Shown here one piece after another: positions 7,401 through 37,978 of a DNA stretch of 64,000 bases. Each line of letters begins with the position of its first letter. Position 1 is the first letter of the stretch. The notes beneath the pieces are model-generated. The model was not told the origin of the DNA. It was given only the letters and a program-made list of their open reading frames with translations, and ran no database searches. A program made the translations under genes and the position numbers. Source of the DNA: a bacterium (GTDB lineage: Bacteria > UBP6 > UBA1177); the NCBI GenBank assembly GCA_017538365.1, contig JAFYIZ010000028.1, positions 52,962 through 116,961 of the forward strand, given 5' to 3'.

Positions 7401-8553
7401 CAATGTCGGAATGAACGACGAATTTGTCGAACAGCTCGCAAAAAGGGAAAATTACGGCTGGACTTCTTGGGACTGCTACAGACGGCTGATCCAGACCTGG
7501 GGCATGAATTTCGGTATCGACCGCGACTTGTTTGATGCAGTCATCGCCGATTTCAAAAAGGTTTACAAAGTCGAGAAAAAGATCGGTTTCAAGCCTGAAG
7601 TCATGAAACTTGTAGCCAAAGAATACATGAAGATTCTTGAAAGCCAGAAAGTGAAATTCGAGCAGAATCTCCACAAACAGCTTTTCACTTCGATCCACGC
7701 GGTTTTCGATTCGTGGAATTCGCGCCGTGCCCTTGTTTACCGCGACAAACTCCACATTGCAAGCGAGTGGGGAACTGCGGTCATCGTTCAGAAAATGGTG
7801 CTCGGAAACATCAACTACGACTCCGGAACGGGTGTTGTTTTCACGCGGGAACCCAACGGCAGAGGCAGAAAGGTATGTCTTTACGGCGATTTCGTAATGT
7901 GTTCGCAGGGTGAAGACATCGTCGGCGGTCTTGTTCACCCGTATCCGGTTTCGGAAAAGCAGAGACTTGAGATGAAAAACGCGCCTGATATCAGTATGGA
8001 AAAAGATTTTCCTGAAATATATTCGGCACTTAACGATATTTCAGTCGAACTTATCAACAAGCGCGGTTTCGGCCATCAGGAGATTGAATTCACCTTTGAA
8101 ACCTCGAAAAAACAGGATCTTCACATTCTCCAGATCCGTTCGTACCACCAGAACGACCTCATGCAGGAAGAGCTTGTTCCCGACAATCTGCCGCTGATAG
8201 GCGAGGGAACCGGCATCGGAAACAACGTCCTCACCGGAAGAGTCGTCTTCTCGATGGAAGACATCGAAAAATGCAAAAAACTCTATCCCGGCGAAAAGAT
8301 CATCGTTATGCGTCCCGACACCGTCAGTGACGATATCGACATGATTTTCGAAGCCGACGGACTGGTCACATCCCGCGGCGGAGCAACATCCCACGCGGCT
8401 GTTACGGCGGTCCGTCTCGGCAAAATCGGTGTCGTCAACTGTAAATCCCTCACCTTGGATGAAGTCAACAAAACCTTCACATTCGGCGGCGAAACTAAAA
8501 ACGTTCTCTGCACACTCACTATCGATGGCAGACGCGGATTCATTTACGGGTAG
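4459..8553 (+). CDS. 1364-aa multidomain protein: unknown N-terminal ~820 aa, then a PPDK/PEPS-like ATP-grasp nucleotide-binding domain and a PEP-utilizing phosphohistidine swivel domain; no PEP/pyruvate TIM-barrel domain
   Basis: The C-terminal third contains GAKGYFLKRIKEYGMPVPHGFILTTELF and LMLSVRSGSAMSMPGAMNTFLNVGMNDEFVEQLAKR, which matches the PPDK N-domain LSVRSGAxxSMPGMMDTxLNLGLND. It also has LVTSRGGATSHAAVTAVRLGKIGVV, the GGxTSHAAI phosphohistidine motif. The protein ends about 25 aa later. RBS ggagg precedes the ATG. Confidence 0.6.
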   Translation: MEVFMSGVIKTSEALKVNLAETFVAGYEFSEQEKFILSAVEKHPLLEKRMRTFFLELNHPFPNFTEVIEAYRWITLENMWVFADLEESDKLLKLLGDYFMQIFSQKLDIPQRNRLRQTIFNVLELLYKILQSSKISDEVFNSYLDITETVLADGNPGLMEASSSLKKYVAEICKDERFSARIFKMLKRVMTINLDYWKNVESFSDWLEKRTIEHGDEALEIENAILSQFPPELFTECEEGIEKAEKCEDFFKLPDYTFFTDRFRNTIDFIPTPICKIYYIFYLLDFSSMESLREYLLFDLNRTLKIVSIDDAGEAKRFITRMFDFFKPVRELFQSAILDCVKTLGKEIVKRGSAAICDHFFDAVIRFGFVYPELKGVNSDWQMIVDKNHVKNIRTWLEIIEVNPSKSTKLLSALLVNLRIGGVFISDTDLFQSDVTKFLNSQIAPAYHIARQIAVLFPVYFNEIGAEGELRKISTAIDEICHRKDLLTHFLRKQIHAESNNTHIQLAKDVFIFWLTGKKEHLQNKIPNEIYETLEPSGEMYEGLHEVARFVTSRVRGDYEALFTMKPAEVEKIIADFGAGHEVEQKKVGYLFNIYLLLKEKYYLNPGDIAKKLKKITYIHQATIDEFEAAMTAEDWKSAVRIAFKIMSALKKTVLSEEQTEGVENIYYKRHIAIGIPSMYGEYREPKFEALGMIYRMEQLVSTMVEKLVSTTKLPYISADNLRETCEILELFREGLELGGITSENFNSDLKMLEYSLVSSSFSLHQYTNIFEFFAEDLSKIVYDYFLGIHDSNLKIVLEQYIEKHNLTVSSEKDKEKIIHKKSEEFYRDIISSSFLMQQIDSLINYLLSILHGIPKSLTQEDIHMIMTYKRKSIISEIDKKDDELDNQVFFGAKGYFLKRIKEYGMPVPHGFILTTELFRRREALMKHPEIEKEIYTTISDELGILEEKTGLQYGNPNNPLMLSVRSGSAMSMPGAMNTFLNVGMNDEFVEQLAKRENYGWTSWDCYRRLIQTWGMNFGIDRDLFDAVIADFKKVYKVEKKIGFKPEVMKLVAKEYMKILESQKVKFEQNLHKQLFTSIHAVFDSWNSRRALVYRDKLHIASEWGTAVIVQKMVLGNINYDSGTGVVFTREPNGRGRKVCLYGDFVMCSQGEDIVGGLVHPYPVSEKQRLEMKNAPDISMEKDFPEIYSALNDISVELINKRGFGHQEIEFTFETSKKQDLHILQIRSYHQNDLMQEELVPDNLPLIGEGTGIGNNVLTGRVVFSMEDIEKCKKLYPGEKIIVMRPDTVSDDIDMIFEADGLVTSRGGATSHAAVTAVRLGKIGVVNCKSLTLDEVNKTFTFGGETKNVLCTLTIDGRRGFIYG

Positions 8554-8616
8554 TCTTTATTTTTTAGGAAAATTGAGTATAATAATGCGTTTTTTTTGTA
8601 TTTGCAGGAGATTTTT

Positions 8617-9661
8617 TATGAAAAAGTTTTTGACTGTTGTATTTGTTATTATTGCTGCAATGATACTTGTTTCGTGCAGCGGTAAAAATCTTGACGATTT
8701 GATTGATGTTCCTGACACAGGCGATTCCGCTGATTCTTCCGCGACACCGGAACAAAATGACACCGATAATGGCGGTGATGCAAATGAAGACACTGCCGAT
8801 TCGAATGATGATACCGGCGATTCGACGACTGACACCGGCGATTCAAATGCTGATACCGGTGATTCAACGACTGACACCGGCGATTCCGGCAACGAAAACG
8901 ATGCAGACAGTGATTCCGATGATGTCGAAGTTTCGGATATTGATATGTCGGATAACGATCAGGAAGAGTCAGGTGACGATGCAGATTCCTCAGATTCCGA
9001 CAATGATAACGACAAAGATCCCGCAGATTCAGGTGATGACAGCGATACCACGGATTCAGGTGACGACAAAGATCCCGCTGATTCCGGAGATGAGAGCGAT
9101 CCCGCAGATTCAGGTGACGACAGCGATACCACCGATTCGGGTGATGATAACGATACCGATTCAGGCGAAAATCAGCAGAAATGCACTGAAATCACTCTCA
9201 TTAATGCTGATCAACTCAGCTACAATAAAGAGTCTTCAACTAGTCACGTATTCAAAACGACATACACTCCTAACACTGGTTCAAATGATAATTTATACAT
9301 TAAAATTTTTGGTTCCTACACGGATAATTATTCCGATAATTACTCGTTGGCTGGAACGAACTGGAAGGATGACAAAGGATATAACATGGCAAACGGAGTT
9401 TTCGTATATGTTTACGAAAACGAATACTGTGACTACAACGGCAGCAACTGCTCCCATAGCAAAATGTACTTCCAGAGAAAGGGAAATGTCGATGTATCAT
9501 CGATGCAAGTCAATAATTTCGGAACAAACATTTTTTACGCAGATCTTGACGGCGTAGAACTTGAAGAAGTCTCAATCAACGGTGCAAACCAATCAATACC
9601 CAAAGAAGGTGGAGAATGTCTTAAAATCAAGGATACAGAGGTTCATTATCAGTGGTATTAA
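8617..9661 (+). CDS. Lipoprotein with a long acidic D/S/T/G tandem-repeat region (DTGDS / DPADSGDDSDTTDSGDD repeats) and a C-terminal globular domain
   Basis: ATG at 8617 after RBS gcaggaga. Signal and lipobox MKKFLTVVFVIIAAMILVSCSG. The track ORF start at 8429 overlaps the upstream gene and I rejected it. Confidence 0.6.
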
Positions 9662-9762
9662 AATCCGTTAAAATAAAAACCGCTTTCTAATCAAAAAAAC
9701 TTCTTTTACAAAACACACACCATCACTTCTTAAAGATTCACGCCATAAAAAATGTTTGTAAC

Positions 9763-9798
9763 AGAATAAAATTCAAGCCTTAAATCTAAAACTTGAAT
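9763..9798 (-). terminator. Putative intrinsic terminator downstream of the tRNA pair (minus strand)
   Basis: Inverted repeat attcaag(9771-9777)/cttgaat(9792-9798). It is followed on the minus strand by a U-rich tract (the revcomp of aataaaa at 9763-9770). Confidence 0.4.
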
Positions 9799-9843
9799 CG
9801 GAAAAAATGAAAGGAAATAAAAAAGGAAGCCTCTTCGATTTTC

Positions 9844-9918
9844 TGGCGACCCCTAGCGGATTCGAACCGCTGTTAGCGGCGTGAGAGGCCGCCGTCCTAA
9901 CCGCTAGACGAAGGGGTC
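9844..9918 (-). tRNA. tRNA-Glu (anticodon CUC)
   Basis: Reverse complement: GACCCCUUCGUCUAGCGGUUAGGACGGCGGCCUCUCACGCCGCUAACAGCGGUUCGAAUCCGCUAGGGGUCGCCA. It folds as a cloverleaf with acceptor GACCCCU/AGGGGUC, anticodon stem GCGGC/GCCGC and loop CUCUCAC. CCA is encoded. Close to canonical tRNA-Glu. Confidence 0.85.
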
Positions 9919-9932
9919 ATTGCATGAATAAG

Positions 9933-10006
9933 TGGATCCCGAACAAGGATTCGAACCTTGATTGACGGAGCCAGAATCCGTAGTCCTGCCATTGGACGAT
10001 CCGGGA
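9933..10006 (-). tRNA. tRNA-Gln (anticodon CUG)
   Basis: Reverse complement: UCCCGGAUCGUCCAAUGGCAGGACUACGGAUUCUGGCUCCGUCAAUCAAGGUUCGAAUCCUUGUUCGGGAUCCA. Acceptor UCCCGGA/UUCGGGA, anticodon stem ACGGA/UCCGU, loop UUCUGGC, T-arm CAAGG-UUCGAAU-CCUUG. CCA is encoded. Confidence 0.8.
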
Positions 10007-10016
10007 ACCTCATGCT

Positions 10017-10373
10017 TTATTTGAAGATTCTTGCGAAGACTTTGTCATCCCAGCCGATGACGTAGATTTTGTGCCACGGTGCAGACTGTTTCAGGTTGTA
10101 GAAAACATGAACCCGATAATTCTCTTCGTTGGTGAGAAGCTCGTCTTTAACCGAACTGTCTCCCACGAAAAGTGCCTGAACCTGTTTTACTGAAGTATCG
10201 AAGTCTTTCATGAGCTGATACTTGTTGTCTCCGGTCTTAGTTGCCTGAGCCGGAAGATAGGCCAAAAACAAGTCTTTTGCAGAAATCCCAAAACTCAAAA
10301 GTGAAAGGACGATCAAAACGGCGGCTTTATAGCCAAAATTTTTTTTAAAGTCAAGAAAAAATTTCATTTTCAC
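10017..10373 (-). CDS. Small secreted hypothetical protein (118 aa)
   Basis: ORF with N-terminal signal peptide KAAVLIVLSLLSFGISAKD. No recognisable domain. Confidence 0.45.
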   Translation of the reverse strand: MKMKFFLDFKKNFGYKAAVLIVLSLLSFGISAKDLFLAYLPAQATKTGDNKYQLMKDFDTSVKQVQALFVGDSSVKDELLTNEENYRVHVFYNLKQSAPWHKIYVIGWDDKVFARIFK

Positions 10374-10396
10374 GAAAAAATCTCCGTTTTCTTTAA

Positions 10397-11395
10397 CTAT
10401 TCGCCCTGATTCTGGAGTTCTTTGATTTTTTCTTTGAGAGCTTTTTCTCTTTCCCAGATCTCTTTGAGCTGTTTTCTTGCCTCTTCGTCAGCCTTTTTGG
10501 TGTCTTCGATGAGTTTTTTAAGTCTGTCTCTTTCCTTGTTTTCAGCTACGAGTTCGTCCGGAGTGATGTGAACGCCGTCGATAATGTAGAAGTTGAAGGA
10601 AAGCGGCTGGTCGGGATCCCACTCTTCGGGAATGTCCTTTACGACCGATTTGAAAACCTTTACGGAGTTGGGAAGGAGCGAAGTTCTGAGACCTTCATAT
10701 CTCATATCGGTGACAGGAAGGAAGTTCTCTGCATAGATTACGTCGCCGTTTTTATCTTTGAAACGGACTCTGATGCCGACTCTGATCATATCAAGGTCGC
10801 TGCTGCCGTTGAGGATCGTTCCGGTAAGTTCTGCAAAACCGGGGCGGTCGGGAATCTTTTTACCAGTAATATCATCGATTTTGATGAGTCCTTTGTAGTT
10901 TTTGAGCAGGTTTGCAAGTCTTGCCTGTTCTGCATCACGCTCGGTGATTTCAGCCATAAGAGTCTGAAGTTCGACTTTGAAAGCTTCTCCTTCCTTTACG
11001 ACTCTGACCGTGAAGATGAGCGTTGCGTCTTCATTCATAACGCCTGCCATACGACCCATGTTAGCCGTCTGACCGGTAGCTTCGATGAAAGCCTTGGTTT
11101 CTGCGTCGATAACGATATTTGCACGCGAAGTTCTGATCTCAGTTCCGATTTTGCCTTTGTATGTTGTTGTTGCAAAATCTTTGAAATCTTCGAATGTTAC
11201 GACTTTTTTCATCTCGCTTGAAAGCCAGTTGTCATAAATTTCCTGCAAAGTTCCCTTCTTGCCGTCGGAAGCGTCGCGGACTGCATAAAGATAGCTCTGA
11301 ATGAAAGCGTCGACCTGATCCTGAAGAGATTTCGATTTTTCGCCGCAGCTCAAGAACATCAGCGCTGCAAGCAAGAAAAGCATCAATTTTTTCAT
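10397..11395 (-). CDS. Hypothetical lipoprotein with a C-terminal charged coiled-coil
   Basis: Likely start MKKLMLFLLAALMFLSCGEKS (lipobox). The C-terminus is ENKERDRLKKLIEDTKKADEEARKQLKEIWEREKALKEKIKELQ. Confidence 0.5.
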   Translation of the reverse strand: MKKLMLFLLAALMFLSCGEKSKSLQDQVDAFIQSYLYAVRDASDGKKGTLQEIYDNWLSSEMKKVVTFEDFKDFATTTYKGKIGTEIRTSRANIVIDAETKAFIEATGQTANMGRMAGVMNEDATLIFTVRVVKEGEAFKVELQTLMAEITERDAEQARLANLLKNYKGLIKIDDITGKKIPDRPGFAELTGTILNGSSDLDMIRVGIRVRFKDKNGDVIYAENFLPVTDMRYEGLRTSLLPNSVKVFKSVVKDIPEEWDPDQPLSFNFYIIDGVHITPDELVAENKERDRLKKLIEDTKKADEEARKQLKEIWEREKALKEKIKELQNQGE

Positions 11396-11441
11396 AATTC
11401 CTCCTGAAAAAGTAAAAAAACAATGTTGCGCGAACATATTA

Positions 11442-13391
11442 TCACTTTAAATATAAGTCAAGAATATAATAACCTTTGATATTCATTGCCGAAATATTGG
11501 AACTTTCGCTCATGAACGGCGTGATTTTTATCGAATATGTTTCTCCGGCTTTCACTTTGCGGGTAATGAAACTGTATTTGTTGAAGTGAAGAGTGGATAT
11601 CATGTCGTCGGAAGTGCCGATTTCAACGCCGTCATGCAGCAGAGTCATCACGGTATCGATATCGAAACTTGTCGATTCGCGGTCAGGACTTGTCGAAATA
11701 TAGACGGTTCCGTCGCGTTCCGCTGTAAATTCGAAAGTGTTCTCGTAAAAATCACTGTCGGTATCGAAATATCCGAAATAAGCTTTGTCAGTCGAAATTT
11801 TTACCGGGTTTTTGTCGGTTCCGTGACTCCATTTTTCAGGTTTCGAGATAATTTCTTCAATCGAAAGAGTCAGTTTCTCACCTGAATTCTGCTCGCATTC
11901 GTTGATAAAAAGTCCGAAAACGAGAGTTTCAGTCAACTCGTATTTTCTTGAAAAAAAGCGGACTGTTTCAGCGGGATCGGGCATTGCAAACGGCAGCAGG
12001 TCACGGTCAAAAATGTAGAGTCCTGCAAGATTTTCAGGCACAGAAAGAGTGATTTCTGCAAGATTTTTTTCTTTGTCGGCAATCCACTTGAAAAATTTCC
12101 AGCCGCAGTCGGGAAGTTCAATCTCAAGCTTGCCGGCGGATGAATCGAAAGTTTCGATTTTTGTCTCTCTGCTGATTTCAAGAGAGTAGGGAACGTCGCT
12201 TCCCAAAAGGTCGAGGTAAATATCTCCGTTGAAAGGCGCGAGCATGTTGATGTTGTGTGTTTCGATGCCGCTCAGCATGTTTGCACGCAGTGCGATAAGG
12301 CCGCTTCCGGTTATGTTGTACGAAGATCCCCAGATTTCGGCAATAAAAGGATTCGGATTTTCGGGAGTGATTTTTATGGAAAGAATATCACCCTTTTCGA
12401 CTTTGAATCTGAACCAGTCTTCGTCGTCGCTCTCAACGCCCAAAATATTTTTCTTTTCAGTGTCCAAATATCCGGAAATATTGGCCGAATCGGTGATGTT
12501 TGCATAGTCGAAGGTGTCGTTCGGTTCAAGTTCCTTTGATTCCGGCTGCTGCGTGAAGGAGACACTGAAAACCTCGTCCTCAGTTTCGTCGAGATCGAGG
12601 AGCATTCTGCCGGTCACGAGAAGATGCCGCAGATTTCCTTCAAGTCTGGAATAGATGAGCGGGTCGATTTTATTGCTGTAGTAGTCTTCATCGTCGTTTC
12701 CTGCGACGATTTCGCGGCTTCCGCAGTTCATGACAAAAGAAAATTTGTTGCTTTTCATATTTTTCGAGTCGACATTCATCTGGTAGAGCGCGCTTTTTTC
12801 AAAAACCGGTTCGAGAATGTCAATATGCTTGCCTGATTGCGAGAAAACTCTTTCAACTGTTGAATTTAATTTGATTTTTTCATAGTTGTCAGCGTCGCAT
12901 ATATGACTTGTTATCACTCTGAAATAATATTTGAATCCACCGACTTTCTTCTCTTCACCTGTGTTTCTTTTGTCGCCTATTTCAAAATAGTTCCAGCCGT
13001 CGGCAGTCGTTACGAAAGTTGCCCTGCGTTTTCCCGGAACTTTGAAAACCGCGAAAGTGTAGTTGCCAAGATTGTCGTTGTGAGCGATGTACGGCTCGAA
13101 ATTTTCTTCTCTGCTTTCAAACTCAAAAGTGATAAGAGTTCCGGAGGGCAGCCAAATCTTGAAAATGTCTGTATCGGCTGAATTTCCCTTGGGTTTTGCA
13201 ATTTCTGCGGCGTAAATGTTTCCTTCAGAAATTTCGAAAGCCGGAAAATCGTTAGGTTCGACTTCGTATATATATTCGGCAGAATCAACGTATTTCGTAT
13301 GTTCGCAGCCGGCAACAAGCGGCAGAAACAATAAAAAATAGAAATATTTCAAAAATTTTAGAGTCAAACAGCCTGCTCCGCAACAAATCAA
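11442..13391 (-). CDS. Secreted/lipoprotein hypothetical protein (649 aa) with two pre-peptidase C-terminal (PPC)-like domains
   Basis: Signal with lipobox FLPLVAGC. Two segments begin EPND..., each followed by a D.DWF.F-type signature: EVEPNDFPAFEISEG... and LEPNDTFDYANI...DEDWFRFKVEKGDILSIKI. Confidence 0.5.
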   Translation of the reverse strand: MICCGAGCLTLKFLKYFYFLLFLPLVAGCEHTKYVDSAEYIYEVEPNDFPAFEISEGNIYAAEIAKPKGNSADTDIFKIWLPSGTLITFEFESREENFEPYIAHNDNLGNYTFAVFKVPGKRRATFVTTADGWNYFEIGDKRNTGEEKKVGGFKYYFRVITSHICDADNYEKIKLNSTVERVFSQSGKHIDILEPVFEKSALYQMNVDSKNMKSNKFSFVMNCGSREIVAGNDDEDYYSNKIDPLIYSRLEGNLRHLLVTGRMLLDLDETEDEVFSVSFTQQPESKELEPNDTFDYANITDSANISGYLDTEKKNILGVESDDEDWFRFKVEKGDILSIKITPENPNPFIAEIWGSSYNITGSGLIALRANMLSGIETHNINMLAPFNGDIYLDLLGSDVPYSLEISRETKIETFDSSAGKLEIELPDCGWKFFKWIADKEKNLAEITLSVPENLAGLYIFDRDLLPFAMPDPAETVRFFSRKYELTETLVFGLFINECEQNSGEKLTLSIEEIISKPEKWSHGTDKNPVKISTDKAYFGYFDTDSDFYENTFEFTAERDGTVYISTSPDRESTSFDIDTVMTLLHDGVEIGTSDDMISTLHFNKYSFITRKVKAGETYSIKITPFMSESSNISAMNIKGYYILDLYLK

Positions 13392-13541: not shown

Positions 13542-14561
13542 ATGAAGTTTTCAGCTTTAATTTCAGTTTTGTTTCTTTCCTTCGTTTTTGTTGCCTGTGT
13601 ATCAGACGAAGATGAAGAAATGCGTTGTATCACCTCTATGGATTGTCCTGACGGTTATACCTGTGCAAATTCTGTCTGCCAGCCGCCGGTTGCTGCCGAG
13701 ACGGATGCTGATGCTCAGAATGATAATGAAACGCAAGATTCCGACACTTCTGTATCCCAAGACGATTCCGGCAGCGTAGATGCCGACAATGTTGTGTCGG
13801 GAGATGATGACGTTTCGCCGGTTGAAGATGACGATGTTTTGGATGATTCGGACGATTCAGATGATTCGACTGAAGAACTGCCTGATGACGTTTCTGCGAC
13901 CGACAATGACGTGGTTGATGAAACTCCTGACGAAGTTACTGTGCTGGAATGTCCGAACAACTGCAGTAATCACGGTGACTGTGACACAGCAACCGGAGTA
14001 TGCACCTGCACAGACAACCATGACGGTGCGGACTGTTCAGAGTGCAAAACCGGATATACGAACAACGGCGGCACATGTGTTCAGAAACAGTGCGACACAA
14101 ATAAATGTTGGACATCCCACAGTTGCACATATCCTATCAGCAGCATTTTTACAAGCACTGAAACTATTTATGCCCACGGAAATTGCGATAACAATACTGG
14201 TGAATGTCAATGTGAAAGCGGCTGGCTTACTGCCAATAACGGAACGGGGGAAACTTTAACCTGCGGTACGGATTATGAAACTTTCGAACCGTTTGAAACT
14301 CTTAACAACATTCAGTGCACAGTCTGCGACAAAAACAATCCGCCGTCACAATATGCTTCAACAGGCTGTCCGACAAACTGCCCGTCTTTGTTTTGCAGCA
14401 ACGCTTTGTTGATAGATACTGGTTCGGGCACCTGTTACTATGAACCTACCGGTTCCCACAGATTATATTGCAAATGTGCATCAGGTTATACGATAAGCGG
14501 CAGCGAATACTACGATGCAAATCCTATGGGAATGTGCAATTCTGAATCGTCTGGCGAATAA
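13542..14561 (+). CDS. Cys-rich secreted lipoprotein with an acidic stretch and EGF/tenascin-like Cys repeats
   Basis: MKFSALISVLFLSFVFVACVSDEDEE lipobox. Acidic D/S-rich linker. CSNHGDCDTATGVCTCTDNHDGADCSECKTGYTNNGGTCVQKQC. Confidence 0.55.
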   Translation: MKFSALISVLFLSFVFVACVSDEDEEMRCITSMDCPDGYTCANSVCQPPVAAETDADAQNDNETQDSDTSVSQDDSGSVDADNVVSGDDDVSPVEDDDVLDDSDDSDDSTEELPDDVSATDNDVVDETPDEVTVLECPNNCSNHGDCDTATGVCTCTDNHDGADCSECKTGYTNNGGTCVQKQCDTNKCWTSHSCTYPISSIFTSTETIYAHGNCDNNTGECQCESGWLTANNGTGETLTCGTDYETFEPFETLNNIQCTVCDKNNPPSQYASTGCPTNCPSLFCSNALLIDTGSGTCYYEPTGSHRLYCKCASGYTISGSEYYDANPMGMCNSESSGE

Positions 14562-15425: not shown

Positions 15426-15454
15426 TAGCGGTTTTTTTGTGAGGTGTGAAAATT

Positions 15455-16924
15455 ATGAACAATTTTGTCAAGAGTTTATTCGTTTTAATTTTCCTTTCAT
15501 TCCAGTTGTTGCTCGTTGCCGAAGAAGCAGAGTCAAAAGAGGCTTCGACGCCTGCTGATGCGGTTTCTGCACAGTCGGATGAACAGAATCCTTCTGTCGA
15601 AAGTAAACCTGCCAAGAAGGATGACCGAGGTTTTGTTTTCGGTTCTTACGGCAGAGTTCAGCCTGCGACTGATCTTCGCGGAGGCTCTCCGAAGTGGGTG
15701 AATATAGTCGGTCACGGCAGCAGGCTTGAGCAAAGCAGCTATGTAGAACTCGATTTTGCTTATCTTCTCCCGCAGATTGGCGACAACGGTCCGAAGTTTG
15801 ACTTTGTTTCGACTCTCGCTTTTTCAGAATCGCTTTTTCACGATAACGGCAAATGGATCGCGCTGAATACGGTTAGAAACCTTTTTGTCAGAGCTGAAAA
15901 CGTTTTTGTAAAACCGCTCGGTTTCTGGGTTGGAAGCAGAATGTACCGCGGCGATGACATCTATCTCCTGGATTTCTGGCCTCTTGACGACGACAATATT
16001 TACGGCGGCGGCGTAACTCTTCACTTCGATGATTTTGCTCTTGAATACTATTTCGGTTTCAACCGTCTCGAAGTTGACTGGCAGTACCAGGAGCAGGAAG
16101 TCGTTTCAAGCACTTTCGGCTCAGAAAGCATAACATGGATGGACAGGCAGCGTATCGTTACCGGTCTCAAATATATGCAGAGATACAATGTTACCGAAAA
16201 AATAGGCTTGAAATGGAAGCTCATCGGTGAATTTCAGAGGATAAGTGCCGGTGAAAAGAGCAACGATCCTCTTGATGAGGACAATTCGATAGTTTATCCC
16301 GAAGATTTCGGCTGGTCGCTTGGCGCTCAACTGGGTCTTTTCGGCTATGCAAAGAACAGTTTTACCGATATTTTCTTCAAATACTCCGGAGGTCTTGCGG
16401 CTTACGGTCTCATGAGCGTTCCGTGGGGATTCGATTCAAAATACAAAACCAAGGATGCCAGAGAGATTCTTTTTGCAATTACATCCAATCTTGAAATCGG
16501 CTGGTTCGGCGCGATTTTCGGCGGTTATGTCCGTTCTTTCAGGGATTCAGACGGCAACAAATACGACAATGACGATTTTGTCGAATACACTTTTTCGCTC
16601 CGTCCGCACTTCTTTATCCATGAAAACTTCTATCTTGCTTTCGAAGTATCGCATCAGCTCAAGGATATGAACGGTCTGACAAATCTGAATAACGGCAAAA
16701 CCAAAAGCATTATGCCGCAGGTTACGAAATTCTCGCTTATTCCGATAGTTACTTACGGCGGCGGAAACTACGGCAGACCTCAGCTTCGTCTGGTTTACAC
16801 TCTTGCAGTTCAGAATGACGATGCCCGCTACTCCTACAACAAAGAGGATTTCCGTGCGAAACATTCCGTTCTTCATTATTTCGGTTTGAGCGCTGAATGG
16901 TGGTTCAATGTCGATCACAGATGA
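15455..16924 (+). CDS. Outer-membrane beta-barrel (porin-like) protein, function unknown
   Basis: Signal peptide MNNFVKSLFVLIFLSFQLLLVAEEA. Alternating aromatic/hydrophilic beta-strand pattern. C-terminal WWFNVDHR with a terminal aromatic region typical of OMPs. I chose the ATG at 15455 with RBS over the GTG at 15446. Confidence 0.55.
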   Translation: MNNFVKSLFVLIFLSFQLLLVAEEAESKEASTPADAVSAQSDEQNPSVESKPAKKDDRGFVFGSYGRVQPATDLRGGSPKWVNIVGHGSRLEQSSYVELDFAYLLPQIGDNGPKFDFVSTLAFSESLFHDNGKWIALNTVRNLFVRAENVFVKPLGFWVGSRMYRGDDIYLLDFWPLDDDNIYGGGVTLHFDDFALEYYFGFNRLEVDWQYQEQEVVSSTFGSESITWMDRQRIVTGLKYMQRYNVTEKIGLKWKLIGEFQRISAGEKSNDPLDEDNSIVYPEDFGWSLGAQLGLFGYAKNSFTDIFFKYSGGLAAYGLMSVPWGFDSKYKTKDAREILFAITSNLEIGWFGAIFGGYVRSFRDSDGNKYDNDDFVEYTFSLRPHFFIHENFYLAFEVSHQLKDMNGLTNLNNGKTKSIMPQVTKFSLIPIVTYGGGNYGRPQLRLVYTLAVQNDDARYSYNKEDFRAKHSVLHYFGLSAEWWFNVDHR

Positions 16925-18431: not shown

Positions 18432-19571
18432 ATGAAAAAACTGCTTTTTCTCCTCGCTGTTGCATTGATTTTTTCTTCGTGCGGCGGAGATTCAAAGTCA
18501 AATGAAGGCGGCGGGATGAGTACAAGCGACTTCTTTGAAAGGTATCTCGATACGCTCTGCAATGCTGCCACCAAGTGTAATTCAGGTTTCGTAAATGCGG
18601 AAAACCTTTCTTTCTGCCCTAAAACGATACTTAATTCAGCAAAGCCTTTCGAGGGTTTTCACAAAGGTGAATCGGTAATTTTCAAGCACAAATACGACAT
18701 GTTGAAGAATGCCGAAGAAATGGGTTGGCTTTCACTCAATACGGAGCAGGCTGAAAGTTGTTTCGCCGTTATCGCCCAGATGGAACCGTGCAATCCGCTC
18801 GATGTCCAGCTCCTTGATATTCCGGAATGCGCCAATGTTTTCAAGGGAACGAAACAAGTTAGAGAAGCATGCAATCAGGATGAAGAGTGTAAAAACGGCT
18901 GGTGCAATATGCGCGGCGGTATTTGTCCCGGATCATGCGTTGATTACAAGCAGCCTGATCAAAGCTGCAATTCATCGCTTGACAAGTGCGTTATCGGATA
19001 TGAGTGCCGTTCTTCCGGCTGTTCCAAATCAAGCTCCGGAGTCGTCAACGATCCGTGTGTAGACAACAGCGACTGCACGACTTTTCTTTTCTGCTACGTT
19101 AAAGAGGGTGATTCTTTCGGAGTCTGCCTCAAGAGAAAAGGTGAGGGCTTGGCATGCTCAACTGCTGATGAGTGTGTTGTCGGTCTGAGCTGTGTCAACA
19201 ATCTCTGCACCCGTTCGAGAGTCAGCGACACGGTTGGTGCTCCCTGCGGTGTTCAGGATGAAAAGGACGAAGACGGCAACGAAATAGTTCTTGAATGCAA
19301 CAGGTTCTCGAAACTTGAATGCAGTCTGGCGAACGTCTGCCAGAAAATGCCTACCTCTTCCAATCTGCAATGTGCCGAATTCTGCGATACTGATCTCGGA
19401 CTTGTCTGCGATTCATATTCGCATACCTGCCAATGGCCTAAAAGTGCAGTTAGCCCGTGCACAAGCAATGAACAGTGCGCCTCGCTTTACTGTGCTGCGG
19501 TTCCCGGAACAGAGGATCAGGAAATTATGATTTGTCAGGAGCCTCAGTGCCTGCCAATAAATGAAGAATAA
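18432..19571 (+). CDS. Cys-rich lipoprotein (about 40 Cys), hypothetical
   Basis: MKKLLFLLAVALIFSSCGGDSKSNEGGG. Numerous CxxxC/CxnC spacings. RBS aggagg lies within the lapB stop region. Confidence 0.55.
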   Translation: MKKLLFLLAVALIFSSCGGDSKSNEGGGMSTSDFFERYLDTLCNAATKCNSGFVNAENLSFCPKTILNSAKPFEGFHKGESVIFKHKYDMLKNAEEMGWLSLNTEQAESCFAVIAQMEPCNPLDVQLLDIPECANVFKGTKQVREACNQDEECKNGWCNMRGGICPGSCVDYKQPDQSCNSSLDKCVIGYECRSSGCSKSSSGVVNDPCVDNSDCTTFLFCYVKEGDSFGVCLKRKGEGLACSTADECVVGLSCVNNLCTRSRVSDTVGAPCGVQDEKDEDGNEIVLECNRFSKLECSLANVCQKMPTSSNLQCAEFCDTDLGLVCDSYSHTCQWPKSAVSPCTSNEQCASLYCAAVPGTEDQEIMICQEPQCLPINEE

Positions 19572-22051: not shown

Positions 22052-22179
22052 AGCCCCCTCCTTTGCTGAAAGCTGAATTTATATAATATTTTTTTTATTG
22101 CAATATCTCTATGCAAAAATCCTTTTTTTAAAGAGATTTTTCAATATAATTCCGCGTTATTTTGTTTGTAGAGGTCTTC

Positions 22180-22779
22180 ATGGAACAGAAAAAAACTTTG
22201 GCGCTTTTCGATTTCGACAAAACTATTACCGACAGAGACACATTTCTGCCGTTTCTGCTCTTTTCATTCGGCTGGTTTAGGACAATGTTGGTGCTTTCAT
22301 TTCTTTTTCCGCAGGCGTTGATCTGTCTTGCCGGTTTTATGTCGCGTAAAAAGTTCAAGGAGATGGTTTTCAAGCTGACGATAAAAGGCTGGACTAAAGA
22401 AAAATTTCATGATGTGGCTCAGGATTTTTACAGGCAGAAGGTGAAAACCTATCTCAGAAAACCGGCTCTCGACGAAATAAAGATGCATCTTGAAAACGGT
22501 GCCGATGTTTCGCTTGTTTCAGCTTCACCTGAAGACTGGCTCTGGCCTTTCACCGAGGAATACGGCATAAATCTGATCGGAACGCGCCTTGAAATAAAGG
22601 ACGGACGCTACACCGGAAACATTGTCGGCGGCAACTGCCGCAAAGCTGAGAAGGTGAACAGAGTCAAAGAAGTTTACAACCTTGAAAATTACTCCGACAT
22701 TTATGCGTACGGCGATTCACGGGGCGATAAAGAGATGCTGGAGATGTCGAATCATCCCCATTTCAGAACTTTCGATTAG
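22180..22779 (+). CDS. HAD-IB family hydrolase
   Basis: LALFDFDKTITDRDTF (motif I DxDxT). C-terminal YAYGDSRGDKEML (motif IV). Confidence 0.65.
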   Translation: MEQKKTLALFDFDKTITDRDTFLPFLLFSFGWFRTMLVLSFLFPQALICLAGFMSRKKFKEMVFKLTIKGWTKEKFHDVAQDFYRQKVKTYLRKPALDEIKMHLENGADVSLVSASPEDWLWPFTEEYGINLIGTRLEIKDGRYTGNIVGGNCRKAEKVNRVKEVYNLENYSDIYAYGDSRGDKEMLEMSNHPHFRTFD

Positions 22780-24437
22780 ATTTTTTTCCTGATTTCTTCT
22801 GCGATTTTTCTTGTCATTTCGACAGGGTGGTAATTCGCGAAAATACCTGAAACTTTGAGTGCGTTTGCCGCGATAGTCGTGTTTTTGTCGACCGAATACT
22901 GCGAAAAGAAGTAAAAAGGAATTTCCGAAATCTCTTTTTTGTGCTTGATTGCGGCTAACAGTCTAAGCGGAGTGATTGCGGTATCCGTCATGTCAATGTC
23001 GCAGAGAATGAAGCCCAAGTGATCCTTTTCGTCTTTGATTATCTGGGCGGCTTTTTCTATGGTTTTCGCTTTTGTGACTTCGATATTTATGCGGCTGAAT
23101 TTGTCAGCGATGTCATCGAGATCGAATTTTTTCTGTGAAATGACGATCGCATTGATCTTTTTCAGTGAAGAGTCTGTTTCTGAAATCTGCTGCGTCTGTT
23201 CGAGCGCGGTTATGAGCCTGTCGCTGAAGAACATCGTCTCTTTGAGCTGCTGAAGCGCCTCTTTCGGTGCAACACCGGAAATTCTCGTCATAAAATCATA
23301 AGTGTTTGCAAGAAGCAGAATGAGAGAACCGACCGGAATTTCGTTCAGCTTGAGATTGCGCGGAAATCCCTGCCCGTTGTAGGTTTCATACATATTTTCA
23401 AGGCAGTTGAGTGCAAGTTTTGAAAGCTGTACATCGGTGAAAAGTTTCGTCGCTATCTGCGAATAAGTTTTCATTTTGTCTGTATTCGTCTGGTTTTTGA
23501 TGTCGAGAGCAGTGAGGTGAAGTTTTTTGCCGACATCGTGAAGATAAGCTGCAATCGTGAGGTCGTAAAGCTCGACTTCGGAAAGATGTATCGCTTCGCC
23601 GATTTCTTTGCAGAGGATCGCGACTCTCTGCGAGTGGGCGAAGTAAGTGTCTCCGTGTGCTGCGACATCGAGAAGATTCGAGAATATGCGGAGAAGCTCG
23701 ATGAGCTGGTTTCCCTGTTCACGAACCCAACTCGGCATACTGCTCATCATCGAAGTCGTAACTGCGGTTACATCGACTTTCGTGTCGGCAAGCTCAGCTT
23801 TGTTGACGATCATCGAGAATGTCTCGCGCTTGTCCTGACGCAGTTTATCCTCGTCCATCGTTGCTATATCCTGGATCCTGTTCGCCATTTCTATATCATT
23901 CGGATTATCAAGGGAAATGATTGTTTCATTGGCAAACATATCGTGGTGCATCGAAACGGAATTCCTGACAAGCCTGTCAAACGCGGAAATATCGTTGTTG
24001 TACTGTTTCAGAATAAGGGCTTTTATCACGTTTGAAGTGGCAACGACGGGAACTACAGACTGAACGCCGTTGAGCAGTATTTTGAGCTCGTCAAAAAGGA
24101 CGATATTCTGCGGTTCGTAGGTGAGAAGAGTTAGACGGTAGTTGTTGATGCTGTACTTCAAAGGAAAAATGGTTTTGTCCATCGCCATTTTCAGAGGAAT
24201 AATGTCTGACGGGGACATAACCGCCATTTTTTCAAGTTTTTCACTTGTTATATACTGAACATTGAACTGCTTTGAAAGGTACTGCAGAAGCTCTGTTTCC
24301 GGTATCTTGCCGAGTTTGAGAAGGATCTCTCCGAGATATGTCGGGTGATTTTTCTGAAAAGAGAGGGCTAAAGAAATATCTGATTCGGAAATAAGCCCTT
24401 TATCTAAAAAGTATTCTCCGACTTTCATTCCAGTCAT
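22776..24437 (-). CDS. Multidomain signalling protein: N-terminal MshEN (T2SS-E N-terminal-like, c-di-GMP-binding type) domain, HD-GYP phosphodiesterase domain and a C-terminal receiver-like domain
   Basis: N-terminus MKVGEYFLDKGLISESDISLALSFQKNHPTYLGEILLKLGKIPETELLQYLSKQFNVQYI (MshEN-like). HD domain HSQRVAILCKEIG...AAYLHDVGK. YNGQGFPRNL (GYP-like). C-terminal HLGFILCDIDMTDTAITPLRLLAAIK (receiver-like). Confidence 0.55.
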   Translation of the reverse strand: MTGMKVGEYFLDKGLISESDISLALSFQKNHPTYLGEILLKLGKIPETELLQYLSKQFNVQYITSEKLEKMAVMSPSDIIPLKMAMDKTIFPLKYSINNYRLTLLTYEPQNIVLFDELKILLNGVQSVVPVVATSNVIKALILKQYNNDISAFDRLVRNSVSMHHDMFANETIISLDNPNDIEMANRIQDIATMDEDKLRQDKRETFSMIVNKAELADTKVDVTAVTTSMMSSMPSWVREQGNQLIELLRIFSNLLDVAAHGDTYFAHSQRVAILCKEIGEAIHLSEVELYDLTIAAYLHDVGKKLHLTALDIKNQTNTDKMKTYSQIATKLFTDVQLSKLALNCLENMYETYNGQGFPRNLKLNEIPVGSLILLLANTYDFMTRISGVAPKEALQQLKETMFFSDRLITALEQTQQISETDSSLKKINAIVISQKKFDLDDIADKFSRINIEVTKAKTIEKAAQIIKDEKDHLGFILCDIDMTDTAITPLRLLAAIKHKKEISEIPFYFFSQYSVDKNTTIAANALKVSGIFANYHPVEMTRKIAEEIRKKI

Positions 24438-24524
24438 TACAAAAACTCCTTAATCAAAAAAACTACTCTCAAAAAAAGACGCGATATTATACTCAAACAA
24501 AAAATAAAATCAAGTTGGTTCGTT

Positions 24525-28059: not shown

Positions 28060-29253
28060 ATGAGCAGAGTAATGACTGGCGACAGGCTCCGCATTTCGAT
28101 TTTCGGCAGGAGAAATGCCGGAAAGTCTTCTTTGATAAACGCTTTCACGGGGCAGAATGTGGCGATCGTTTCCGATGTTCCGGGAACTACGACCGATCCC
28201 GTAATGAAAGCGATCGAGCTTTTTCCTACTGGTCCTGCGATCCTTATTGACACAGCCGGACTTGACGATACAGGCGATGCTTTGGGTCTTGAAAGGGTAA
28301 AAAAATCGGTAAGTTATCTAAAAAAATCGGATATGGTGATCCTTGTTGTAGATGCTTCCGGAACTGCCGGAGAACTTGAGGACAACATAATTGCTGAATG
28401 CGAAAATGAAAAAATCCCGCTCATTCTGGTTCTCAACAAGTCGGAACTGACCCTTTCGGAAAGCGTTAAAACGTGGCTCGAAGGCAAAGAATACATTTCG
28501 GCAAGCGCTAAAAACAACGAAGGAATTGAGAAAATCACGAAAAAGATAACGGAACTCTCTCCAGACGAGTGGGAACCGCCGTTTCTGCGCGATCTCATAA
28601 ATCCCGGAGATATCGTTCTGATGATAACTCCTATTGATTCAAGCGCGCCGAAAGGACGCATGATCATGCCGCAGGTTAGAGCTTGGAGAGACATTCTTGA
28701 CGGCGGAGGTATTGCTCTTTCGTGCGAGCCGGCTAATCTGCAGAAAACGTTTGATTCGCTCAAAAGCAAACCGGCTCTCGTAGTCACAGATTCTCAGGTC
28801 TTTTCAAAAGTTGCTCCTGTTGTTCCAGAAGATGTTCCTTTCACGTCGTTTTCGATCCTTTCGATCAGGCAGAAAGGAAATCTCGCTGAAATGGTGAAGG
28901 CTGTTAAAACGGTTGAAAATCTTAAAGCTGGCGACAAAGTGCTGATCGCAGAAAGCTGCTCGCACCATTCTCAGGATGATGACATAGCCCGCGTCAAGAT
29001 ACCGAAATGGCTGAATGACAAAGTAGGCGGCGGACTTATAATAGAAACTTCAAGCGGCAGGGATTATCCCGAAAATCTCACTGACTACAAACTGATAGTT
29101 CACTGCGGTGCCTGCACTTTGAACCGCCGCGAGATGCTGCTTCGTCAGGCGATCCCCGCTGAAAAAGGAGTGCCTGTGACGAATTTCGGAGTTCTCATAA
29201 GCTATCTGCACGGCGTTTTCCCGCGTGCGCTGAAACCTTTCGGGATTGAGTGA
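28060..29253 (+). CDS. hydF: [FeFe]-hydrogenase maturation GTPase HydF
   Basis: 397 aa. GRRNAGKSSL (G1), DTAGLDD, NKSE. C-terminal FeS ligands ESCSHH ... HCGACTL. Confidence 0.8.
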   Translation: MSRVMTGDRLRISIFGRRNAGKSSLINAFTGQNVAIVSDVPGTTTDPVMKAIELFPTGPAILIDTAGLDDTGDALGLERVKKSVSYLKKSDMVILVVDASGTAGELEDNIIAECENEKIPLILVLNKSELTLSESVKTWLEGKEYISASAKNNEGIEKITKKITELSPDEWEPPFLRDLINPGDIVLMITPIDSSAPKGRMIMPQVRAWRDILDGGGIALSCEPANLQKTFDSLKSKPALVVTDSQVFSKVAPVVPEDVPFTSFSILSIRQKGNLAEMVKAVKTVENLKAGDKVLIAESCSHHSQDDDIARVKIPKWLNDKVGGGLIIETSSGRDYPENLTDYKLIVHCGACTLNRREMLLRQAIPAEKGVPVTNFGVLISYLHGVFPRALKPFGIE

Positions 29254-37906: not shown

Positions 37907-37978
37907 TTTTTTTGACAACCAATTTGGTAGCAATAGCAGACTTTTGTTTTGTTTGTTTTATCGATTAAGGAGGGAAAA

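Follow-up and report, generated by a model that had tools for sequence, protein, structure and literature searches.

Does a protein that appears to join a receptor for cyclic di-GMP (c-di-GMP) to the domain that hydrolyses this second messenger both sense and degrade it? The question is raised by a gene at positions 22776–24437 (reverse strand) of a 64,000-nucleotide stretch of contig JAFYIZ010000028.1 (assembly GCA_017538365.1), from a bacterium of the lineage UBP6 UBA1177; we refer to this whole stretch as the window. A sequence-only reading had proposed that the 553-residue product carries an MshEN domain, an HD-GYP core, and a receiver-like module, in that order, and all three are found by profile searches, AlphaFold2 (AF2) modelling, and Foldseek. 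The HD-GYP-like domain has lost three ligands of the binuclear metal centre, from which we infer that it cannot carry out canonical binuclear c-di-GMP hydrolysis, and the reading we lean towards on the sequence and model evidence, with the balance of probability modestly in its favour, is that of a cytoplasmic, non-hydrolysing, c-di-GMP-responsive adaptor.

The gene is organized as three domain-coding segments and a linker:

22776–24437, reverse strand: complete open reading frame (ORF) of 553 amino acids, with an ATG start and its stop codon at 22776–22778.
23964–24437, reverse strand: MshEN (T2SSE_N or GSPII-type) domain, residues 1–158 (Pfam, NCBIfam, phmmer, AF2, Foldseek).
23712–23957, reverse strand: variable, low-confidence linker, residues 161–242 (predicted local distance difference test, pLDDT, below 50; alignment).
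23178–23711, reverse strand: HD-GYP-fold domain with a degenerate catalytic centre, residues 243–420 (HD_5 profile, profile alignments, Foldseek).
22782–23156, reverse strand: CheY-like (beta-alpha)5 pseudo-receiver, residues 428–552 (AF2, Foldseek, family profile).

The AF2 model is based on a 64-member family alignment, which also provides the per-column counts given below; its mean pLDDT is 80, with confident domains at residues 1–158, 243–420 (all-helical), and 428–552. The linker is the least conserved part of the alignment and is rich in insertions and deletions across the family. With Foldseek against the PDB, each of the three domains is matched independently, to MshE, to HD-GYPs, and to CheY-type receivers. 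The Pfam models MshEN (PF05157; 25.3 bits, cut-off 23.1, residues 77–147) and HD_5 (57.7 bits, cut-off 27.2, residues 262–400) both pass, as does Pfam HD (32 bits, cut-off 22), and the MshEN-like N-terminus is further supported by NCBIfam NF053729, 'cyclic di-GMP-binding domain, MshE-related' (44.7 bits, cut-off 38, residues 6–57). The three peptides on which the domain assignments had been based, LGEILLKLGKIPETELLQYLSKQ, HD...GQGFP, and ILCDIDM, are all present in the translation. The protein stops at residue 553, just past alpha5 of the receiver; there is no C-terminal DUF4388, and PF14332 gives no match.

The proposal that the HD-GYP domain hydrolyses c-di-GMP, so that one protein senses and degrades the same messenger, fails at the catalytic centre. 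As defined by Galperin and Chou, an HD-GYP domain has, besides the HD dyad, the signature HHExh[D/N]GxGYP; the window protein keeps the dyad and reads MYETYNGQGFP in place of the signature. The peptide HD...GQGFP quoted earlier corresponds to H300-D301 and G355–P359 of the HD-GYP-like core, within two elements:

23517–23540, reverse strand: HDVGKKLH, with the HD dyad H300-D301, K304, and the family-specific H307 (alignment, translation).
23361–23393, reverse strand: MYETYNGQGFP, counterpart of HHExh[D/N]GxGYP, with HH replaced by M349-Y350 and the Tyr of GYP by F358 (translation, alignment).

A profile built from 19 diverse family members was aligned to the solved HD-GYPs PmGH, PA4781, and V-cGAP3. 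By this alignment, PmGH H189, H221-D222, K225, and D305 are retained as H268, H300-D301, K304, and D381, whereas H250, H276, and H277 are replaced by Y325, M349, and Y350, respectively. The third-metal glutamate E185 corresponds in the alignment columns to the non-acidic T264, at a position that is variable in the family, and H307 is the sole histidine in residues 302–400. In PmGH, the alanine mutants H250A, H276A, and H277A each 'essentially abolished' activity, while GYP-motif and RxxK mutants retained most of it, the GYP tyrosine being non-critical (PMC4159591). The KPG loop, which holds the second guanine, is deleted from the window protein, because its residues align as insertions relative to the family profile, in PmGH as 'ip' and 'pgkl' and in PA4781 as the ten residues 'vpdrvllnpg'. 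The RxxK c-di-GMP contact of HD-GYPs is not conserved in the family, and the GYP tyrosine position is occupied by Phe, Leu, Tyr, or Val across it. The sequence-only reading had itself named degenerate HD-GYP catalytic residues as what would tell against it, and such degeneracy, with three histidine ligands replaced, is what the alignment reveals.

The degeneracy extends well beyond the window protein. An exhaustive profile search over 1.84 billion representatives gave 188 clusters at E≤1e-30, and a motif census of the best 150 of the 188 together with earlier relatives included 128 representatives with a recognisable xxE..[DN]GxGxP motif. Just one of these 128 has HH, in a protein without an MshEN motif, and 104 have [M/L]Y. 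Within the 64-member alignment, M349 is Met in 55 members, and Y350 and Y325 are each Tyr in 62; E351, G355, G357, P359, H268, H300, D301, and H307 are invariant. Representatives that align at marker columns of all three domains number 69, and comprise ten 'short' forms (about 540–555 residues), the size class to which the 553-residue window protein belongs, and 59 'long' forms (over 600 residues). In 67 of these 69 a histidine lies seven residues past the HD histidine (HDxGKxxH, H307 in the window protein), without a counterpart among the PmGH metal ligands; the equivalent of PmGH D305 is kept in nine of the ten short forms, and in the long form Ala or Glu takes its place. Because the substitutions are near-uniform and accompanied by a fixed set of residues, we conclude that the HD-GYP degeneracy is old, uniform, and under selection rather than the mark of a decaying remnant, and that, judged by these counts, the domain is a distinct and conserved HD-GYP variant. 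Neither a superfamily of MshEN-fused HD-GYPs that is uniformly [M/L]YE nor the near-invariant H307 appears in the literature searched.

The evidence for a c-di-GMP receptor is found at the N-terminus. The window protein matches PilF, PilB, and MshE in phmmer searches, and the AF2 model (pLDDT about 90 over residues 10–158) has helices at residues 6–58 followed by beta/alpha elements, giving the fold of VcMshEN, in which a four-helix bundle at the N-terminus is combined with an alpha/beta subdomain. Foldseek matches include MshE (5htl, TM-score to target 0.70), 9g1w (0.69), and PilF GSPII-A. Wang et al. 2016 defined MshEN by two 24-residue motifs five residues apart (PMC5013675), and the corresponding segment is as follows:

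24267–24425, reverse strand: putative c-di-GMP-binding segment of 53 residues, consisting of motif I, the spacer KNHPT, and motif II (Wang 2016 pattern).

Motif I (K5–Q28, KVGEYFLDKGLISESDISLALSFQ) fits the relaxed pattern [RKPN]hGxxhhxx[GAS]hhxxxxhxxxhxx[QNKRYWST], taken from Wang et al. 2016 (PMC5013675), as 45 of the 64 family members do. It is followed by the five-residue spacer KNHPT and by motif II (Y34–Q57, YLGEILLKLGKIPETELLQYLSKQ), within which LGEILLKLGKIPETELLQYLSKQ occupies residues 35–57. For c-di-GMP binding, hydrophobic residues outweigh charged ones, mattering more than Arg9, Asp12, or Gln32 (Wang et al. 2016; PMC5013675), and the hydrophobic guanine-contact positions F10, L25, L39, L50, and L54 are kept in at least 61 of the 64 members. 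The domain is probably, though not certainly, a c-di-GMP binder, since motif I is intact, the hydrophobic contacts are conserved, both terminal glutamines (Q28 and Q57) are present, and NF053729 is above its cut-off; Tyr34 might stack on guanine in place of arginine.

The C-terminal module has the CheY fold, as had been proposed from the ILCDIDM peptide, and contains an acceptor aspartate, but it is a pseudo-receiver in which other phosphorylation residues are missing. Pfam PF00072 (Response_reg) has no match in the window protein even at E≤10; the relatives P0067 and P0079–P0083 do have a precomputed PF00072 match. A profile of the C-terminal 130 residues against the PDB matches, with a best E of 2.3e-4, almost solely CheY-type receivers, along with a small number of de novo designed proteins, and DSSP assigns the AF2 model as b1-a1-b2-a2-b3-a3-b4-a4-b5-a5 over residues 428–552. 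Foldseek matches to receivers (CheY, RR468, PhoB; 3dge_C, 1zes, 8wiw_4) have TM-scores of 0.85–0.89 and root-mean-square deviations of 1.7–2.0 Å over about 125 columns. ILCDIDM (residues 477–483) forms the beta3 strand and holds the acceptor D480. The remaining residues were assigned by family-profile alignment to V. cholerae CheY4 together with column counts: the acidic pair D12 and D13 corresponds to S434 (Ser, Cys, or Thr in the family) and Q435 (Arg or Gln), the acceptor D57 to D480 (Asp in 60 of 64), T87 to S512 (Ser in 61 of 64), and K109 to A534 (Pro or Ala). In receivers, the acidic pair binds Mg2+ for phosphotransfer, and the lysine contacts the phosphoryl group. Because both are missing, phosphorylation of D480 is unlikely.

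The domain combination had been described as unusual, but it is already catalogued. Wang et al. 2016 report in their main text that MshEN associates with REC and HD-GYP (PMC5013675), and their Supplementary Table 4 lists 'MshEN - HD-GYP - REC - DUF4388', exemplified by M. xanthus MXAN_2809, in Myxococcales; a 2022 M. xanthus paper describes MXAN_2807 as an HD-GYP protein that also bears an MshEN domain (PMC8844925). In the literature searched, MXAN_2809 is mentioned in one transcriptome paper alone, and no biochemical study of any MshEN-HD-GYP-REC member was found. The MXAN_2809-type proteins of Myxococcales have the same order of the first three domains as the window protein and are homologous to it (P0079–P0083, E 1e-23 to 1e-47); these long relatives have precomputed Pfam annotations of MshEN, HD_5, and REC, and of a C-terminal DUF4388. 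They share the HD-GYP variant, with LFE, LYE, or TFE for HHE, GFP for GYP, and a histidine seven residues past that of the HD dyad. They differ in several respects: DUF4388 is absent from the window protein, whose last domain is the receiver; this receiver has the acceptor aspartate but neither the lysine nor the acidic pair, while in the long form the acceptor position is mostly Glu and the lysine is retained; the window protein retains the equivalent of PmGH D305, which the long form replaces; and its MshEN motif II begins with Tyr, where the long form mostly has Arg. We therefore describe the window protein as the short form of an MshEN-HD-GYP-REC superfamily, having no DUF4388, an intact HD dyad, MY in place of HH, and a pseudo-receiver.

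Degenerate HD-GYP domains also have characterised precedents. The best Foldseek match of the HD domain is Desulfovibrio vulgaris DvhD (9rbz/9rc0; E 3.7e-6, TM-score to target 0.67–0.69), with V-cGAP3 (5z7c), PA4781 (4r8z), Bd1817 (3tm8), and PmGH (4mcw) also matched, and the family profile matches the same PDB entries for this domain (5z7c, 4r8z, 9rbz, 4mcw, and 3tm8). DvhD resembles the window protein in having an HD-GYP fold with the double histidine replaced (MN in DvhD, MY in the window protein), and it binds c-di-GMP without metals and does not hydrolyse it (HD to SQ, HH to MN; PMC13090378). Unlike the window protein, DvhD has lost the HD dyad and kept GYP, and senses c-di-GMP with the HD-GYP domain itself; it spans the membrane, belongs to a Lap-like adhesin system, and has the organization dCache-PAS-HD-GYP, without MshEN and receiver domains. 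Pectobacterium atrosepticum ECA3548 (PilZN-PilZ-HD-GYP*) and Shewanella oneidensis HnoD (REC-HD-GYP*) likewise fuse a receptor or signalling domain to an HD-GYP with an altered HHE (ANE and QLE, respectively), and in the census of Galperin and Chou neither hydrolyses c-di-GMP and both have regulatory roles. They differ from the window protein in having lost the HD dyad (HT and SE, respectively), in domain order, and in the absence of a C-terminal pseudo-receiver, and the receptor domain of ECA3548 is PilZ rather than MshEN. Tandem HD-GYP protein V-cGAP3 of Vibrio cholerae (5z7c) is the best PDB sequence match of the window protein; its N-terminal HD-GYP copy, also aligned by the family profile, is degenerate (LKDAG, SLDEHWNGQGRP) and shows that such modules are reused as non-catalytic parts. 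Unlike the window protein, V-cGAP3 has a fully active C-terminal HD-GYP (HD, HHE, GYP) and has neither MshEN nor receiver. P. aeruginosa PA2572 (YN-GYP) is reportedly another inactive, regulatory HD-GYP. The literature already contains the domain combination as well as the idea of a degenerate HD-GYP receptor, and the window protein is no new class of system.

Two other family assignments were considered and rejected. The RpfG family (REC-HD-GYP) combines CheY-fold and HD-GYP-fold domains as the window protein does, but in the reverse order, and 'response regulator RpfG family c-di-GMP phosphodiesterase' is the IMG name of cluster-mates P0235, P0248, and P0081. Galperin and Chou verified HD-GYP domains by the HHE/GYP motif and built their logo from RpfG-family sequences; the window protein has HD-GYP before REC, is degenerate in both domains, and departs from the HHE/GYP motif, and the NCBIfam NosR-family response-regulator phosphodiesterase (PDE) model matches it partially and far below threshold (75.8 bits, cut-off 400). 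The RpfG name on the cluster-mates is probably a mis-transfer, because neither the domain order nor the catalytic and phosphorylation residues fit. The HDOD domain (Pfam PF08668) reaches 21.0 bits against a cut-off of 22.9, in a partial match (profile positions 89–151 of 196).

In the adaptor that we favour, c-di-GMP would bind the MshEN bundle, with Tyr34 standing in for the arginine that stacks on the second guanine, and the signal would pass by the flexible linker to the HD-GYP-derived module. The latter would serve as a conserved output module that binds a ligand or a partner, like those of DvhD, ECA3548, and HnoD, and the non-phosphorylated pseudo-receiver would offer a surface for dimerisation or partner docking. 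This reading is favoured because DvhD, which the HD domain matches best in structure, binds and does not hydrolyse c-di-GMP, and because ECA3548 and HnoD provide precedents for fusing a receptor or signalling domain to an inactivated HD-GYP.

Several observations weigh against it. The arrangement of the domains relative to one another in the AF2 model is of low confidence (predicted TM-score 0.45). Motif II departs from the relaxed pattern at position 1 (Y34, not Arg, Lys, Pro, or Asn) and position 11 (K44, not hydrophobic), and none of the 64 family members fits this pattern, with position 1 deviating in all of them (Tyr, Phe, or Leu). Constructs of PilF GSPII-A with Ser at motif II position 1 lost c-di-GMP binding, and even a perfect motif did not suffice within the full-length domain (PMC12002112). 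A motif search of the 64-kb window found no GGDEF, EAL, or PilZ signature and no second MshEN motif. Finally, the HD-GYP-like domain is not simply dead: H268 is conserved in 68 of the 69 representatives, H300 in 69, D301 in 60, H307 in 67, Y350 in 63, and E351 in 69, and this set would be compatible with a metal site that has been remodelled and may retain some catalytic function.

The points concerning motif II lend themselves to an alternative that we regard as unlikely, in which c-di-GMP is no longer a ligand of the MshEN domain, as with PilF GSPII-A or XpsE, and all three modules serve as interaction surfaces of a c-di-GMP-independent scaffold. In addition to the misfit of motif II, its final residue is Arg instead of Gln in 29 of the 64 family members, and PilF GSPII-A regained binding after changes at both the position-1 Ser and the last-position Arg, each of which was needed (PMC12002112); the lack of c-di-GMP genes from the window would also be expected of such a scaffold. 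The NF053729 match, motif I, and the full set of conserved hydrophobic contacts argue for binding instead, and the window protein itself has both terminal glutamines and an aromatic Tyr with the potential to stack on guanine. The fused HD-GYP-derived domain likewise points to c-di-GMP signalling, as does the one direct c-di-GMP link among the genomic contexts examined: in one of 33 loci (L023), a REC-GGDEF diguanylate cyclase gene (6923–7903, forward strand; Pfam GGDEF 150.6 bits, Response_reg 92.1 bits) lies directly upstream of, and on the same strand as, a homologue with 38% identity.

The conserved residue set underlies a second alternative, which we consider improbable: a remodelled HD hydrolase in which H268, H300, D301, H307, Y350, and E351, joined in the short form by D381 and Y325, would build a Tyr-ligated mono- or binuclear site acting on pGpG, another nucleotide signal, or c-di-GMP in a non-canonical manner under the control of MshEN. 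These residues are kept in 60–69 of the 69 representatives, in short and long forms alike; the dead HD-GYPs that have been characterised lack even the HD dyad (DvhD has SQ in its place, HnoD SE, and ECA3548 HT); and at two of the three lost histidines the substitute is specifically Tyr, which could ligate a metal. The existence of mononuclear H..HD..D phosphohydrolases within the HD superfamily also counts in its favour. Against it, the position of PmGH H276 is taken by Met or by Leu, a residue unable to ligate metal; the Ala or Glu at the D305 equivalent in the long form makes the putative site non-uniform across the superfamily; and the conservation is equally explained by a ligand-binding or interface role. 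In its boldest version, which we rate as a long shot, the [M/L]Y-E site would be a new His/Tyr-ligated metal centre that processes a nucleotide signal, be it c-di-GMP, pGpG, or some other dinucleotide, under gating by the in-cis MshEN; this would constitute a new catalytic HD-GYP subclass with built-in substrate or product sensing, spanning about 190 protein clusters in several phyla.

The weakest alternative, an active HD-GYP PDE controlled allosterically by its own MshEN c-di-GMP sensor through substrate activation or feedback, can draw on the HD_5 match, the retained HD dyad, H268, K304, and D381, the invariance of E351 and of GxGxP within the GYP motif, the PmGH mutants by which neither F358 nor the absence of RxxK is decisive alone (PMC4159591), and the IMG name of the cluster-mates, but it is very improbable and was rejected as the leading model on the PmGH/PA4781/V-cGAP3 alignment and the family-wide motif counts, given that three of the seven binuclear-centre ligands are replaced at positions where each single alanine mutant all but abolishes PmGH activity, that T264 is non-acidic and the KPG loop deleted, and that comparable losses of HH (MN in DvhD, QL in HnoD, AN in ECA3548) accompany non-hydrolysing proteins, although there, unlike in the window protein, the HD dyad is lost as well.

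If the adaptor reading is true, the public annotation of the family ('HD domain-containing phosphohydrolase', 'RpfG family c-di-GMP phosphodiesterase') is misleading, and censuses that count its members as c-di-GMP-degrading would overestimate PDE capacity and underestimate receptor capacity, an error that weighs most in poorly known gut and sediment lineages. The family would offer a compact soluble model for an MshEN sensor coupled to a non-ATPase output, and the conserved H..HD..H(+7)..YE constellation poses a defined question on the role of a 'half-degenerate' HD-GYP pocket. The superfamily comprises about 190 clusters at 50% identity, including MshEN plus HD-GYP proteins of Myxococcus; the uniformity of [M/L]YE and the near-invariant H307 matter mainly to c-di-GMP specialists and to annotation.

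The gene at 22776–24437 is real, because an identical protein is deposited (MBR6422057.1, 'HD domain-containing protein [bacterium]', in a 72-member cluster at 90% identity), 78 clusters of full-length homologues are found at 32–93% identity to the window protein, and the gene is present in 31 of 32 loci taken from species-representative genomes (full-length homologues, 32–98% identity). The closest loci are from rumen or gut metagenome-assembled genomes (goat, yak, reindeer, and deer), which bear the label 'bacterium UBP6_UBA1177' or 'uncultured Spirochaetales'. The G+C content of the window is 43–47%, without a local anomaly.

The gene looks monocistronic, without a conserved operon partner. 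It is flanked by two candidate signals:

24486–24513, reverse strand: sigma-70-like promoter match, TTGATT-16-TATAAT (10 of 12 positions), a consensus match only, in the 87-nucleotide gap between the upstream GH3 gene and the ORF.
22739–22760, reverse strand: terminator-like hairpin and T run just past the stop codon, a consensus match only, the number of such matches in the region equalling the shuffle expectation.

The stop end of the ORF shares four bases (22776–22779) with the 3' end of a convergent HAD-family hydrolase gene (22162–22779, forward strand), an arrangement shared by the ten closest loci. Adjacency to the upstream GH3 (NagZ-like) gene, next to which the gene has moved in the window's own clade, is confined to the close clade and two relatives with 58% identity (L014 and L015). 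In eight to nine more distant relatives (35–57% identity), the gene is divergent from mraZ-rsmH-ftsL-ftsI (the dcw cluster), and in 11 loci the homologue is convergent with a gene coding for a Peptidase_C25 protein of about 790 residues; tblastn found neither dcw-cluster nor C25 peptidase genes in the window. This dcw/C25 slot is conserved in L013, L016, L018, L019, L020, L022, L027, and L033 (at about 6000–12000 in each), and also in L012. An operon-based assignment of function was rejected, with the neighbours differing by clade (GH3 as against dcw/C25) and treated as lineage synteny rather than a functional link. The association of the neighbours with the cell envelope (NagZ, the dcw cluster, and a penicillin-binding protein in L012) is a lead and not evidence.

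The other genes of the window are housekeeping in nature, including those coding for asparaginase, Era, CoaX, PyrD, HydF, LexA, a LamB porin, and Ffh; the LamB porin gene, identified by Pfam (15446–16924), contains the other 'HDxGK' match in the window and was set aside. The HydF [FeFe]-hydrogenase maturation GTPase (28060–29253, forward strand; HydF_tetramer and HydF_dimer) fits an anaerobic, hydrogen-metabolising gut organism. A 1364-residue ORF (4459–8553, forward strand) has PPDK_N and PEP-utilizer mobile domains confined to its last 430 or so residues, with no Pfam match at E≤1e-4 in the first 930 or so. The adjacent 346- and 649-residue ORFs at 10397–11437 and 11442–13391 (both reverse strand) have signal- or lipoprotein-like N-termini and no Pfam family at E≤1e-4, and further ORFs (e.g. 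those at 37949, 49125, 50174, 51533, and 54608) begin with an N-terminal signal peptide with a ...SCG lipobox-like end. Two genes, at 13542–14561 and 18432–19571 (both forward strand), code for cysteine-rich predicted lipoproteins with eukaryote-type Pfam matches, to EGF_2/Teneurin-EGF and to the Dickkopf N-terminal Cys-rich region.

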